IMG/VR virus record: IMGVR_UViG_3300025395_000007
Length of the DNA stretch: 64,000 nucleotides
Strand: one strand, 5' to 3'
From: a virus
The translations under genes and the position numbers were made by a program. Below, piece after piece: positions 2,341 through 7,746 of the stretch (the first letter of the stretch is position 1; every line of letters starts with the position of its first letter). Under the pieces are notes generated by a model. It was not told the origin of the DNA. It did not search any database and saw only the letters and a program-made list of their open reading frames with translations.

Positions 2341-2368
2341 AAAGGGGGGCTTCCGCTCCCCTTTTTTT
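2341..2368. terminator. intrinsic terminator between convergent genes
   Basis: AAA-GGGGGGC-TTCC-GCTCCCC-TTTTTTT hairpin with T-run on + and short A-run on the other side. Confidence 0.85.
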
Positions 2369-4556
2369 ATGAGAATTTTACGTTCTTAAGATCGTGTGGA
2401 TATGCACCTTTTAATTCAGCATACCATGATGGAGCAAATTCATTACCAAAGAATTTTTCAGTATTATGATCCATGCCAACTGCAGATCTTGATGGAGGTT
2501 GTCTATAATCATCTGGTGGTCTTGAACCTTCATTACCTCCAGTAGATTTCATAGAAGCTTCTCTAGCAAGTTCAGACATTGCTGTTTGCTCTACACCTCT
2601 TCTTGATAAATTTTCACCACGATCATGGCGGGTATCAACACGATATCCGCTTTCTTCATTATTACCACCACCAAGTAGCGATGAAAGTATATTAACACCA
2701 GCACCTATAAGACCGCCAGCTCCACCTCTACCACCAAGCATACTTTCCATCATACCCATAGGACCAGATTGAGCAAATCCAGCAGTACCTAATACACCGT
2801 GACCTATTTCGCCCTGACTAATTTTTCCTACATTACCAAGTTCTGGGAATGGTCCACCGCCACCGCCACCTTGACCTTGGTTAGCGAATCCAAAACTACC
2901 TTCATTTTGTCTTGGACCATGACCCTCTGAGGCAGCGCCACCGCCACCTCCTGCATACTGCCAATGCCATGGTTCTCTTGGAATATTACTGAATCCGAAT
3001 TTTCCTGCATTTTCTTGTAGCCATTTATTTTGTTTGCTGCCTTCTTGATTTGCACCGCCACCTAAATCAACAGCCAGACCCCAACCATGATTTGATGTTC
3101 CAGGAGTTGCAGCCAATCCGCCTTGAGAATATAAACCTTTTTGTTTTGCAAGTCTGAGTTGCTCATCATAAGTTCTATATGAATCTGTAACACTCCAAGA
3201 TATACCTTCAGATTTGGCAGCATCTAACATTTTCTTATATGCATCAGCGGCTTCTGGTTTTAATCTATGATTACCTTCACCGATAGATACTAATTCCGCA
3301 TCAGGTAAATTACCATTTCCACCTTGATCGCCACCTTGTGATAATTCACCACCACCTCTGCCCATCATAGGATTTGGTGCACTTACTTGTTCTCCACCAC
3401 TTTCTCTATTGTTACCGCCAGAAATAGGAGTTGTATCAGAACCATTAACTGATGGTGTATTGCCACCTTGTTGTGAAGGCGATGGAGGAACAGCTGTATT
3501 AGGTTGAGGTGTTACTGCACTAGCAACTTGAGTTTGCGTGGCGCCACCAGACATCTTTGAGTCTATCGAAGCTAATTTAGAACCATAATCGGGATCTGTA
3601 GCATAACCACTTTTAGATTGAGCAGCTATTGCTTCATCTATACTTTTAGCAGCCAGAACATCTTTATATCTTGGATTCTTCATTAAAAAATCAATATAAT
3701 CTCCAGCTGATTCTGAAGAATCTTTATATGATTTGAAATTTTGTTTTGTGTCAACCATTTTACCGTTGACAAATTCTTGTGTTCCTGCACTAACACTATC
3801 TGTATCATTTTTTCCAGCTTTGATACCAAAAGCATTATTACCAACCATATGTTGGCCATAACCAGTTTCAAGCGAAGTTTGTGTAGCCCCTAATTTGGCA
3901 ATAACTTCTGGATTTGGAACACCTTTTTCTTTTGCTGCTTTCAATAAAGAACTATACATTTTATCATAATATTCTTTTTGTTCTGCAGATGCAGGTTTAT
4001 TAGATTTTGCAGTTTCACCAGCTGGCGCACCACCTTTAGGTATTGTCGCTCCTGGCATGTTTTCGAAGCCAGTTTGCATTTTATTTTCTTTAGCTACCAT
4101 ATCGCCAGCAACTGTGCTAATACCTAAAGCACCTAGACCAACTTTTGCAGTATTAGAAATATTTAATTTACCACCAGTAGCTAAACCACCAATTTTTTGG
4201 AATAAACTGCCACTACTATTTCCTACATTAGAATTTTGATTACCTAATGATTGTATAGCAACAGCAAGATGTTGTAATTGTGTTATTACTTGATATTGCG
4301 CTTGTAAAGAAGCATTCAATATACTATTTGTTTGACTTAATTGTGAAGTAACACCTTGTTGACTATCAGAAAGAGCTTGCTGTATTTGTGGGCCAATACT
4401 TGATATTTGTTGTTTTTGAGAAGCAAATACATTGTGTACGTCTTTAAGAATTCGAGACATATTTTCATTGTGTTCATCTGCAGCTTCTCTGAAATTATTT
4501 GTTGCGGCATTCATACCGCTTGCTGCTTTTGCTATTTGACTTAGTTCATTTGCCAT
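2367..4556 (-). CDS. tape-measure-position (gp29-like) virion protein with GH73 glucosaminidase-like and M15 peptidase domains
   Basis: N-terminal Q/A/S-rich helical region; FlgJ/GH73-like LETGYG..NNAFGIKA..GYATDPDY (~3555-3985); VanY/M15-like DSYRTYDEQ..PGTSNHGWGLAVD..EPWHW (~2955-3300); follows gp26/gp51. Confidence 0.75.
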   Translation of the reverse strand: MANELSQIAKAASGMNAATNNFREAADEHNENMSRILKDVHNVFASQKQQISSIGPQIQQALSDSQQGVTSQLSQTNSILNASLQAQYQVITQLQHLAVAIQSLGNQNSNVGNSSGSLFQKIGGLATGGKLNISNTAKVGLGALGISTVAGDMVAKENKMQTGFENMPGATIPKGGAPAGETAKSNKPASAEQKEYYDKMYSSLLKAAKEKGVPNPEVIAKLGATQTSLETGYGQHMVGNNAFGIKAGKNDTDSVSAGTQEFVNGKMVDTKQNFKSYKDSSESAGDYIDFLMKNPRYKDVLAAKSIDEAIAAQSKSGYATDPDYGSKLASIDSKMSGGATQTQVASAVTPQPNTAVPPSPSQQGGNTPSVNGSDTTPISGGNNRESGGEQVSAPNPMMGRGGGELSQGGDQGGNGNLPDAELVSIGEGNHRLKPEAADAYKKMLDAAKSEGISWSVTDSYRTYDEQLRLAKQKGLYSQGGLAATPGTSNHGWGLAVDLGGGANQEGSKQNKWLQENAGKFGFSNIPREPWHWQYAGGGGGAASEGHGPRQNEGSFGFANQGQGGGGGGPFPELGNVGKISQGEIGHGVLGTAGFAQSGPMGMMESMLGGRGGAGGLIGAGVNILSSLLGGGNNEESGYRVDTRHDRGENLSRRGVEQTAMSELAREASMKSTGGNEGSRPPDDYRQPPSRSAVGMDHNTEKFFGNEFAPSWYAELKGAYPHDLKNVKFS

Positions 4557-5086
4557 TAACTGCTACCGTTCATTTTTGCTAGTTTCTCTTGACCTCTAGT
4601 CCAGGCAGCTACACCGAGAATTGCTGCAAACGAAAGATGTATTAATCCACCATTTGATAATGTTAAAGGAACCCATGGCGAATAAGTAAATTGAACACCA
4701 AGTCCTTTATATATTACTGGTAAAAATATTGTAATTCCAGGAAATCCAATAAAATCCATAAAACAAATAGCCATATAAAGCCAGCCCATCGCTGGTCTCC
4801 AATATGCTTTTATCCAATGCTCTTCTGATTCTTTTAATTGTTCATCAACAACTTCTTTATCAATAGAAGTTTGTGCAAGCCCAACAGAAGCTTGAGCTTG
4901 TGCAGTGGCCATCTGCATTGTTTGGTTGTTTTGATTATTGTAGTTATTGTTCCCACCATTATTATTGTTATTATCAATAACTACGACAGAAGGTGGAGGA
5001 GCTACAGGTGTGGGTGTTGGAACAGCCACATTGCTGATATCAGGCGATGATGGAGGAGGAGCGTTAGGGTCTGCTCTAATTACCAT
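4556..5086 (-). CDS. holin (GTA 3TM-holin-like)
   Basis: WRPAMGWLYMAICFMDF..P and HLSFAAILGVAAWTRGQEK hydrophobic segments typical of this family; Pro/Asn/Gln-rich N-terminal extension. Confidence 0.75.
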   Translation of the reverse strand: MVIRADPNAPPPSSPDISNVAVPTPTPVAPPPSVVVIDNNNNNGGNNNYNNQNNQTMQMATAQAQASVGLAQTSIDKEVVDEQLKESEEHWIKAYWRPAMGWLYMAICFMDFIGFPGITIFLPVIYKGLGVQFTYSPWVPLTLSNGGLIHLSFAAILGVAAWTRGQEKLAKMNGSS

Positions 5087-5264
5087 TTTGCTGTCTTTGT
5101 TTCGCTTCTTCTACTTCTCTTAGATAATTCATTAACATTTCGATATAAATGTCTCTTTCAAAAGGCATTAAATTTTCAATTTCACTAATGGAATATTTAT
5201 GATGCTGAGCCATTGAAAAAATTGTTGTAAAATAATTCTGTAAAGAATTATGACTCAGCGCCAA
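5076..5264 (-). CDS. gp51: baseplate hub assembly catalyst (gp51-like); possibly translated only as a -1 frameshift extension of gp26
   Basis: F.MAQHHKYSISEIENLMPFERDIYI motif; no SD before TTG; overlaps gp26 end in the -1 frame. Confidence 0.85.
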   Translation of the reverse strand: MALSHNSLQNYFTTIFSMAQHHKYSISEIENLMPFERDIYIEMLMNYLREVEEAKQRQQNGN

Positions 5265-5962
5265 GTAAAAAAATCATTTAACGAATTTAATACGATTTTT
5301 CTTTCATTACCTTTTTTATTTGTGTAATTGATAGTGTGTTCTAGTTTAGGAACAGATAGTAGAAAATTCTGAATAGATTCAAAAGTTTTCATATCTAGAT
5401 TTTCTAAGAAATCTTCTAATTCTTGCTTCTTATAGTTTTTAGATTCATAAACACTATCACCATAATACATTTTATCAATACATCTGATGATCAATTCAAA
5501 CATATAGTTTTTATCTAATTTAAGAAATTCTTCATCATCATATAAAGATGCTGGAGGATACTTCATAACAATACCAGATTTATCTGTTATTTTAATATTA
5601 TTTTCTAAATTTTTAGGGTATATAATTTCTATATCATTTAAATCTACAGTAAATGTATAAGTTTCTTCGTCTTCAAAATCTTTATATGTTAGCTTTGCTA
5701 TGTTATCTACAGAAACAGCTCTGAGCTTTAGAAAGATATATTCTAAATCAAAAACGGCTAATTTGTTAATGTCTAACTTATCATCTGTGCAGCAATTATT
5801 AACAATCTGTTTGATTGCTGATAAAATCTCAGCTTGACTTTCGCTTTCTCTAGCCATGAGAAGTAGTTTTTCTTCTTTGACTAAAAATGGTCTAAATTTA
5901 TAAACCTTTTTCAGAGAAGGTATTTTGATATTATATAAAGGGTATTCAATTTTAGGTAACAT
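5255..5962 (-). CDS. gp26: baseplate hub assembly protein (gp26-like)
   Basis: MLPKI..P.Y, FRPFLVKEEKLLLMA, FDLEYIFLKLRAVSV, MKYP; GGAG SD. Confidence 0.93.
   Translation of the reverse strand: MLPKIEYPLYNIKIPSLKKVYKFRPFLVKEEKLLLMARESESQAEILSAIKQIVNNCCTDDKLDINKLAVFDLEYIFLKLRAVSVDNIAKLTYKDFEDEETYTFTVDLNDIEIIYPKNLENNIKITDKSGIVMKYPPASLYDDEEFLKLDKNYMFELIIRCIDKMYYGDSVYESKNYKKQELEDFLENLDMKTFESIQNFLLSVPKLEHTINYTNKKGNERKIVLNSLNDFFTWR
5267..5273 (-). other. candidate -1 programmed ribosomal frameshift slippery heptamer T TTT TTT
   Basis: Minus strand GAT TTT TTT ACT TGG CGC TGA; a -1 slip reads TAC TTG GCG CTG AGT CAT, which is the gp51 frame. Confidence 0.65.
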
Positions 5963-5981: not shown

Positions 5982-6686
5982 TTAATAGTTTATTAAACCT
6001 GTCGAAAGTGATAAATTATCTATTGCTTCTTGTGATATTGATGATTGTTGACTAGCAGAAGGTGTTGTAACCTCCGAACTTTCAATTGTATATTCTGTGT
6101 ATGCAATGCCAAGATTTAATCTTAAAAGATTTCCTTGATCTGCCCAATTTAAATTTACTTCTCTCATTGAAGTCGGGAATGCTTCAAATAGATTAATTTC
6201 TTGAATTTTTTTACCAAAAATATCATACATTATAATTTGAATGGTTGTAGAATATTGATCTTTATATTCTGCAGTATATGATGGTATTTTGTTGGCTCTA
6301 CCGCCAGAACGGGCAGAAGAAGTTCCAGTAAATTCATATATTCCTCTTAACCAATTGTGCCAAAACTGCCACATATTACCGTAGCCGTCAGAGATCAAAG
6401 AAATACTTGTTTCTGAAAATTGAGCATTCATAGGTTGTTTCTGGGTTGGACCAACGCCATAGTGGTTAACGTCTGCATTGATTAATGTTATGCCAGGAGT
6501 TCTTATAGATTCTGCTCTGAATGATATATCTGCTGCTATATTATTGATCGAAGTACTAGATCCAGTATTATTAATAAAGGAATTGAATAGAATCGGCGGT
6601 GGGTTGAGAACAACTTTAAAACGGTTATTTGTTAAATAACCGCTCGCTGAAATATTAGTTTTAAAATTAACTATATTAAATGGCAT
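5982..6686 (-). CDS. gp54: baseplate tail tube initiator (gp54-like, tube-fold protein)
   Basis: Tube-fold pattern NRFKV..RAESIRTPG..F..W..LFEAFPTSM..V.LNW..; position next to gp2/gp26. Confidence 0.7.
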   Translation of the reverse strand: MPFNIVNFKTNISASGYLTNNRFKVVLNPPPILFNSFINNTGSSTSINNIAADISFRAESIRTPGITLINADVNHYGVGPTQKQPMNAQFSETSISLISDGYGNMWQFWHNWLRGIYEFTGTSSARSGGRANKIPSYTAEYKDQYSTTIQIIMYDIFGKKIQEINLFEAFPTSMREVNLNWADQGNLLRLNLGIAYTEYTIESSEVTTPSASQQSSISQEAIDNLSLSTGLINY

Positions 6687-6694
6687 TTCTATTC

Positions 6695-7294
6695 CTAGTA
6701 AGGTGGCGATGCTTTAGAAGAATATCTTCTATCTGGATTTATTTTCCACATTTGCATTGGTAATAGCAATGCTTTATCCCAGTCCTTTGGGTTAACATAT
6801 TGAAATGCACTTTTTACATGACCATATAGGTATCTTTTAACACAATTTTCAAACCCAGAGAATTTCGTAGAAGATTGTTTTAGAACATTATACGAAATAT
6901 TAAGTTTGGTCGAATTATTGTATTTATCATTATTTGCGATAGTATGTAAAGCGTTCATCAAACCAGCTCGCGCTTGTGGTGGTAAATAATGAAGGTTAAT
7001 TGCTAGAAATCCACTGGTGGAGAAATCTAATGGAAACACAAGAGGAAACATATCATAAAAAGGTAATGTTGCTTTAAACTTAGGGTCATAAACAAACATA
7101 AACATTTTACCGATTTGAGGGACACCAACATTCTTAAAGATTTTAAATGGGTCGGCGGTTTCCATTATTTGTTCTTGATTAACTTGATCTTTATTGATAT
7201 TCATGGCCTGATCGCGATACCAAGCTTGAGCTTCTTGTGTATCGCTGAAAGAAACGCTTTTAGCAGCCTGATTTATTTGTTGGAAAAGATACAT
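6695..7294 (-). CDS. gp2: DNA end protector protein
   Basis: GKMFMFVYDPKFKATLPFYDMFPLVFP, INLHYLPP, CVKRYLYGHV. Confidence 0.93.
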   Translation of the reverse strand: MYLFQQINQAAKSVSFSDTQEAQAWYRDQAMNINKDQVNQEQIMETADPFKIFKNVGVPQIGKMFMFVYDPKFKATLPFYDMFPLVFPLDFSTSGFLAINLHYLPPQARAGLMNALHTIANNDKYNNSTKLNISYNVLKQSSTKFSGFENCVKRYLYGHVKSAFQYVNPKDWDKALLLPMQMWKINPDRRYSSKASPPY

Positions 7295-7746
7295 TAATAC
7301 GTAATTCCTAATTCTTTTTCAGTAAAAATAACAAACTTCCATCCTCTATCTTTACAATATTCGGATGCAGCTTTCCACTTAGCTTCATTAATTCCCCATG
7401 TTTTAACTTCTGTAAGATATCTTTTTGTCATCTTTTGTTGCCTAACAGGGGGGTTTACTTGTTTAGCTGGTTTGACTTCAATTATAACAGTTTCTTTTAC
7501 ACTATCCTTATTTATTTTAGTTACAATAAAATCAGGATAATATCTATGTATTTTTCCATCTATAGGTGATCTATAATGTATAATAATCTCTTCAGATCCC
7601 CATGAAAGGATCTGTTTATCCTCGTCCAATCTCAACATTAATTTAAGTTCCCATCCAGAACGATAAATAATGTTGGTAGGATCACCTTTGTATTTTTGTG
7701 GATTTTTGGGTTTAAAGTACCCTTGATATAATTTCATCTTCACCAT
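7294..7746 (-). CDS. gp4: head completion nuclease
   Basis: FKPKNPQKYKGDPTNIIYRSGWE, WGSEE, HRYYPDF, EVKP, NEAKWKAA. Confidence 0.95.
   Translation of the reverse strand: MVKMKLYQGYFKPKNPQKYKGDPTNIIYRSGWELKLMLRLDEDKQILSWGSEEIIIHYRSPIDGKIHRYYPDFIVTKINKDSVKETVIIEVKPAKQVNPPVRQQKMTKRYLTEVKTWGINEAKWKAASEYCKDRGWKFVIFTEKELGITY

Follow-up and report, generated by a model that had tools for sequence, protein, structure and literature searches.

A predicted −1 ribosomal frameshift joining the gp26- and gp51-like reading frames of an uncultured T4-like myovirus

The tail chaperone pairs gpG/gpGT of phage lambda and E/E+E′ of phage P2 are produced by −1 frameshifting, and a −1 frameshift in the tail assembly chaperone genes was reportedly found by Xu, Hendrix and Duda in 2004 to be conserved among long-tailed phages. 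Another established −1 frameshift is that of the tau and gamma products of Escherichia coli dnaX. In phage T4, gp26 (208 amino acids, aa) and gp51 (249 aa) are listed as hub assembly chaperones (Leiman et al., 2010; PMC3004832, Table 2). A literature search for a gp26/gp51 frameshift, incomplete in its coverage, returned no paper describing such a slip. The present study concerns a gp26-like gene and the gp51-like frame that overlaps its end in a 64,000-nucleotide (nt) stretch of viral DNA (IMG/VR record IMGVR_UViG_3300025395_000007), the whole of which is referred to below as the window. The window has a G+C content of 36% and belongs to an uncultured T4-like myovirus, the nearest isolates to its proteins being marine cyanophages and their relatives at ~40% protein identity, and a contig of IMG/VR contains an identical sequence; all of its features discussed here lie on the minus strand. 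The comparative sequence data are best explained, with a rough probability of 0.85, by a programmed −1 ribosomal frameshift that makes both gp26 and a gp26-51 fusion.

Slip site, predicted products and conservation

The gp26-like gene (5255-5962), read in frame 0, encodes the short product, a baseplate hub assembly chaperone of 235 aa. It matched PF12322 with 189 bits (gathering cut-off 24.5; E 1.3e-55), residues 10-232 covering profile positions 4-218 of 219, and phrog_150 with E 4.4e-59, and GGAG is found 12 nt before its ATG. The 3′ end of the gene reads GAT TTT TTT ACT TGG CGC TGA and thus contains a T TTT TTT heptamer (5267-5273) in X XXY YYZ phase, made up of the last base of Asp230 (5275-5273) and the codons of Phe231 (5272-5270) and Phe232 (5269-5267), a phase that lets both tRNAs re-pair. 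The frame-0 stop TGA (5255-5257) is separated from the heptamer by 9 nt and falls within the 5′ arm of the outer RNA stem described below. After a slip, the −1 frame would continue TAC TTG GCG CTG AGT CAT and is open until a TAG at 5078-5076.

This gp51-like extension (5076-5267) consists of 63 codons and the TAG and matched phrog_634 (E 3.4e-25) as well as phrog_150 at positions 242-276 of 282; read from its TTG it is a frame of 62 codons (5076-5264) with the same phrog_634 match. Joining 5267-5962 to 5076-5267 gives a predicted fusion of 295 aa (232 + 63) and ~34 kDa, in comparison with ~7 kDa for a separately started gp51, and the predicted junction peptide is SLNDFFYLALSHNSLQNYF (...NDFFYLALSH...). 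The initial annotation, made from the letters of the window, had proposed this gene end, heptamer, continuation and fusion, and the same coordinates were recovered here. The extension was found by tblastn in 540 phage records. For the 62-aa frame no match was obtained with the copy of Pfam searched, although the Pfam family PF28602 (Gp51_C) is recorded on a relative.

A T7 run is by itself not beyond chance, since 21 are present on both strands of the window; the signal lies in placement and conservation. As dinucleotide shuffles led us to expect ~51 such runs, T7/A7 runs are under-represented in the window and the run at the slip site is kept against a general avoidance of homopolymers in this genome.

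The gp26 loci gathered from IMG/VR and from named phages comprised 87 distinct loci in 41 clusters at 60% aa identity. All 87 carried T TTT TTY in X XXY YYZ phase (T TTT TTT in 68, T TTT TTC in 19), all had the gp26 stop 0, 3, 6 or 9 nt (zero to three codons) after the heptamer, and the gp51-like frame was in the −1 phase in every one of them, so that the slippery Phe-Phe run and the −1 overlap, whose conservation had been put forward as a check of the frameshift, proved to be kept throughout these homologues and in further clades. The same T TTT TTY pattern was present in Sinorhizobium phage phiM12, Methylophilales phage Melnitz, Vibrio phages VmeM-32 and D479, Paraglaciecola phage GD1, Pseudomonas phage Astolliot, Aeromonas phage Assk, S-PM2 and Syn1, and in 18 more IMG/VR loci. 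The residue before Phe-Phe changes among the 87 loci (D, S or N), yet the third base of its codon is T throughout; in the rest of these gp26 genes TTT accounts for 66% of the Phe codons and GAT for 75% of the Asp codons. This invariant T beneath a varying residue, together with the relaxation to TTC TTT in T4 gp26, indicates selection on the nucleotides and not on the residues alone.

The arrangement might also be thought due to chance, to sequencing errors in a homopolymer or to a gene junction in decay, with no functional long product, given how common T7 runs individually are and given one apparent in-frame fusion (P0033) from a long-read contig with a split gp26. The comparative data effectively refute this, as over 100 independent assemblies and genomes of isolates, from several phage families, repeat the arrangement, and the extension is conserved coding sequence. 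P0033 (192 aa) itself was rejected as evidence for a natural in-frame fusion: on its contig, a 191 kb long-read assembly from ENA (L105:1178-2079), gp26 is found in pieces of 108 aa and 192 aa, the second running in frame into the gp51 part, and the split is probably due to homopolymer indel errors. The precomputed Pfam tags of that contig include PF28602 Gp51_C.

RNA signals around the slip site

Downstream of the heptamer, an outer stem of 9 bp is formed by a 5′ arm GCUGAGUCA (5251-5259), which follows the heptamer at a distance of 7 nt and contains the UGA stop, and a 3′ arm UGGCUCAGC (5204-5212); in part of the clade three extra pairs (5261-5263 with 5200-5202) are added. In an alignment of 50 sequences, 91.8% of the cells of this stem were paired, compared with 26-47% for slid partners. 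Changes on both sides were seen in five of the nine pairs, and the covariation score was reached by none of 500 shuffles. Examples of compensation are the replacement of UGA by UAA with C to U opposite, and Leu CUG/UUG with Gln CAG/CAA. The 69 nt following the heptamer have a minimum free energy of −18.1 kcal/mol (z −5.4). Nested in the outer stem is an AU-rich hairpin of 8 bp with the loop UUAC (5232-5251), the inverted repeat to which the initial annotation had drawn attention. It exists and folds in the window sequence, but the annotation had missed the outer 9-bp stem, and the hairpin is lineage-specific, with 46.9% of its cells paired in the 50 relatives; at 47% against 92% for the outer stem it was rejected as a conserved stimulator. 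Other clades have different stems at a similar spacing, and an Rfam search of 4900-5500 gave no family matches.

A Shine-Dalgarno (SD)-like motif precedes the heptamer by 4-15 nt in 17 of the 19 TTTTTTC loci versus 17 of the 68 TTTTTTT loci, and was absent when looked for upstream of the heptamer in the window. In the TTTTTTC loci this motif is GAGG or GGAGG and comes from conserved LEGL codons; it is possibly a dnaX-like upstream stimulator. The likeness to E. coli dnaX consists in a homopolymer-type heptamer with a downstream stem-loop, to which the TTTTTTC relatives add the upstream SD-like motif. The systems differ in that the slip shortens the dnaX product whereas it would lengthen gp26, and in that the window has no upstream SD-like motif.

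These signals also bear on transcriptional slippage, by which RNA polymerase stuttering on T7 would add one U to some mRNAs and so bring the fusion into one frame. A homopolymer of 7-8 T is indeed present in the clade and the protein outcome would be identical to that of ribosomal slippage. However, in 19 of the 87 loci, as in many named phages, just six T residues followed by C are present, and a T6 run is generally held to be short for efficient stuttering by bacterial RNA polymerase. Furthermore, the run is always in the X XXY YYZ codon phase, the conserved stem stands at a 7-nt spacing typical of ribosomal stimulators, and both this stem and the SD-like motif of 17 of the 19 TTTTTTC loci are elements that act on ribosomes. 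On account of the codon phase, the spacing and the T6C variants, ribosomal slippage is favoured, and we judge the transcriptional route very unlikely.

With ribosomal slippage, most ribosomes on the gp26 mRNA would stop at the UGA (5257-5255) and release the 235-aa gp26, while a minority, paused by the RNA stem 7 nt downstream (5259-5251 with 5212-5204, with its nested hairpin), would slip back by one base, the tRNA-Phe pair moving on UUU UUU within U UUU UUU (5273-5267). The slipped ribosomes would then read the −1 frame to 5076 and complete the 295-aa gp26-51. What the sequences themselves show are the features of the site, their conservation, the paralogy in T4 and the predicted chaperone-like fold, whereas the slippage, its rate and the binding partners of the two proteins are inferred.

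Comparison with T4, its relatives and the lambda chaperones

T4 gp26 and gp51 each matched PF12322 end to end, and by these profile matches genes 26 and 51 are paralogues, gp51 bearing an added C-terminal extension. Their treatment as separate genes, mentioned in the initial annotation, is refined here to that of two paralogues, each with a full PF12322 body. The part added in T4 gp51, ~48 residues, matches the family of gp51 stubs, and residues 147-246 of the protein match phrog_634. With a hidden Markov model (HMM) built from 85 conceptual fusions, T4 gp51 aligned unbroken over residues 116-246 across the predicted junction, and T4 gp26 aligned to its last residues, ...EFFELL, which end at the slip position. 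A direct comparison of the 62-aa frame and T4 gp51 by BLASTP gave no alignment, the relation being visible by profiles only. At the 3′ end of T4 gp26 (L104:2303-2360) Phe-Phe is spelled TTC TTT, so that the residues are kept and the slippery run is gone. Genes 26 and 51 of T4 are divergently transcribed. The complete genome of T4 has two PF12322 genes and those of S-PM2, Astolliot, Assk and Melnitz one each; one copy was found in the 64-kb window, the portion of the genome covered by this check. The window thus resembles T4 in sharing PF12322 and in a predicted fusion that is collinear with gp51 through the junction and the extension; it differs in that T4 has separate paralogous genes and no slippery run, whereas the one gene of the window would make both forms. 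The short and long forms would correspond to T4 gp26 and gp51, respectively. As a side observation, T4 gp26 weakly matched phrog_1140 (E 9e-4), the family of the gp28 'baseplate hub distal subunit' (T4 gp28, L104:4849-5382), which hints that gp28 may be another distant paralogue.

In the ViI-like Kuttervirus (L103:2040-2213) and Vibrio phage K362 (L109:1600-1800), a homologous gp26 and extension are present in the same gene order and −1 phase. These phages differ in lacking the T-run, the codons being ATT TTC and CTT TTC, and in that the ATG of the small open reading frame (ORF) overlaps the stop as TAATG; their small gp51-like ORF is probably translated on its own. Judged from these sequences, there are three solutions, namely the slip, the two genes of T4 and the coupled-start small ORF of the ViI-like phages and K362. 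As T4 and the ViI-like phages and K362, which have no need of a slip, have lost the T-run, the slippery run is kept exactly where a slip would be needed.

The initial annotation had regarded gp26 and gp26-51 as equivalents of lambda G and GT, a view that the match of T4 gp51 architecture to the fusion and the predicted chaperone fold of gp26 both support. The AlphaFold2 (AF2) model of gp26 had a mean confidence (pLDDT) of 90.4. A sequence-profile search of solved structures with gp26 gave noise only. In a VIA-align comparison of the model with 48,161 chains, the top three matches all fell on residues 1-94 and were 3fgx (Z 7.6), the HK97 tail assembly chaperone 2ob9 (Z 6.3) and Bacillus subtilis YqbN, 3klu (Z 6.2); 3fgx and 3klu we take to be prophage chaperone-type proteins. 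The N-terminal domain of gp26 (residues 1-94) is therefore predicted to fold like tail assembly chaperones, and as the Z values are middling the match is supportive and not proof.

Like lambda G/GT, the locus has overlapping frames, with an X XXY YYZ site shortly upstream of the codon that ends the short form, and a long form that would consist of the whole short form plus a C-terminal extension without its own start. It may further resemble lambda in the placement of these frames, which lie downstream of a tail-tube-like gene and upstream of a large gene that is putatively the tape measure, and in the chaperone fold predicted for the N-terminal domain of gp26 (Z 6.3 with HK97 2ob9). It differs from lambda in that the family PF12322 is not classified among the tail assembly chaperones, that gp26 is larger, at 235 aa, and has a further C-terminal domain, that the heptamer is U UUU UUU and not G GGA AAG, that a gene for a protein with three transmembrane (TM) segments separates the chaperone gene from the putative tape measure, and that the T4 homologues act in hub assembly. 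In logic gp26 and gp26-51 would be a G/GT-type pair, and probably in fold too. By analogy with gpG/gpGT, the short form would be abundant and the long form rare, and both would help to assemble the complex of central hub and tape measure. A true, if distant, homology of gp26 and gp51 with lambda G/GT, by which a two-form frameshift chaperone would be ancestral to the T4-like myoviruses too, is in our view about as likely as not.

Start of the gp51-like frame, gene context and implications

No ATG, GTG or TTG was present between the upstream −1 stop and codon +6 in 51 of the 87 loci, whereas the peptide FFY[LVI]xLSHNxLxNYY was kept from the slip site onward. The check on independent initiation of gp51 suggested by the initial annotation thus found the downstream frame without a start codon in most lineages. 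The codon aligned to TTG 5264 of the window is TTG, ATG, GTG, CTG, GTT, ATT or CTT in relatives, and owing to this variation the position is better read as that of a hydrophobic residue than as a start codon. An SD-like motif was sought in the 20 nt upstream of TTG 5264 and of ATG 5213, and neither has one, in agreement with the earlier reading; such a motif precedes ~60% of the 49 long ORFs of the window within the same distance. Public annotations and gene callers place the start of gp51 inconsistently or miss the gene. The gp51-like frame is unannotated in the GenBank records of S-WAM1, ACG-2014d, S-PRM1, Assk and VmeM-32, and the records of Syn1, Melnitz, Astolliot and D479 begin it at an internal ATG, with loss of the conserved N-terminal motif.

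Several points weigh against a frameshift. The loci compared are kin, so that lineage counts overstate their independence. Both arms of the outer stem code for conserved peptides (ALSH and [ML]AQH), for which reason some of the conservation of pairing is that of the proteins, and the covariation amounts to a modest 29 cells. A Foldseek search of the gp26 model against PDB returned nothing at E ≤ 0.001, and the structural match found by VIA-align is below Z 8 and concerns one domain only. Further, the window has its TTG three codons past the slip site, which coupled re-initiation could use to make a separate 62-aa protein, and the TAATG start of the ViI-like phages and K362, in the absence of a slippery run, indicates that a gp51-like extension can exist as a separate protein.

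The last two points are also those on which one would argue for two ordinary genes, with a separate 62-aa gp51 translated by coupling or re-initiation from TTG 5264 or ATG 5213; the T-run would then be due to Phe-Phe conservation in an AT-rich genome and the −1 phase the usual geometry of an overlap. In some relatives an ATG does overlap the stop, in the form TAATG, TGATG or ATGA, and ~40% of the window genes have no SD motif. Two ordinary genes would, however, leave the 51 loci that lack a canonical start before the LSHN motif with a motif conserved in the −1 frame, and a supposed start codon that varies as a hydrophobic residue. Moreover, no synonymous change is seen in the third base of the preceding codon or in the first Phe codon, positions that T4 relaxes; in T4 gp51 the extension is seen in its proper place, attached to a PF12322 body; and genomes with a single PF12322 copy could not otherwise make a gp51-type protein. 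We therefore consider two ordinary genes unlikely, and retain programmed ribosomal frameshifting as the preferred explanation.

Upstream of gp26, the window has a gp4-like gene (7294-7746), a gp2-like gene (6695-7294) and, directly before gp26, a tail-tube-like gene (5982-6686), a gp54/gp19 paralogue that matched phrog_45 'tail tube' (E 1.8e-19) and, weakly, PF23849 and PF06841. Its positional counterparts bear the annotations baseplate-tail tube initiator (Assk) and gp19.2 (phiM12). Between gp26/gp51 and the putative tape-measure gene lies a gene (4556-5086) whose ATG overlaps the end of the gp51-like extension and which encodes the holin-like protein of 176 aa with the three TM segments (phrog_3427, E 9.5e-7; PF11351 below cut-off). 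Its N-terminus is Pro-rich with poly-Asn and its matches to holin families are weak; small unrelated ORFs take its place in phiM12 and Melnitz. The next gene (2367-4556) encodes a putative tape-measure-like protein of 729 aa with glucosaminidase and VanY domains (PF01832 and PF02557) and a partial match to phrog_16823. Besides these two domains it has a coiled-coil-like N-terminus and long Gly-rich stretches. In phiM12 the annotation of the gene in this place notes a similarity to tape measure proteins, and no similarity to the 729-aa protein was seen when it was looked for with T4 gp29. Its position, its size and the phiM12 annotation are what point to a tape measure, and the protein may be one that carries two cell-wall hydrolases.

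If the homology with lambda G/GT holds, the long-puzzling 'catalytic' gp51 of T4 would be the GT-type long form, which a duplication in the Tevenvirinae turned into a gene of its own. The clade of the window would set the ratio of the two forms by U7 and a long-range stem built from codons of two conserved motifs, and the cyanophage clade would use UUUUUUC and an upstream SD-like element instead. The loss of the T-run with Phe-Phe kept in T4, and its loss alongside a separate start in the ViI-like phages, would make up a natural experiment in the gain and loss of a recoding site. The frameshift would also explain why most T4-like genomes appear to have no more than a gene 51 stub of 40-120 aa, with inconsistent starts, and hundreds of annotations of cyanophages and of pelagic, Vibrio, Aeromonas, rhizobial and Pseudomonas phages would need a joined coding sequence. 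It would extend the conserved frameshift of the tail chaperones to the T4-like phages, the best-studied group with contractile tails, in which the literature search returned no description of it.

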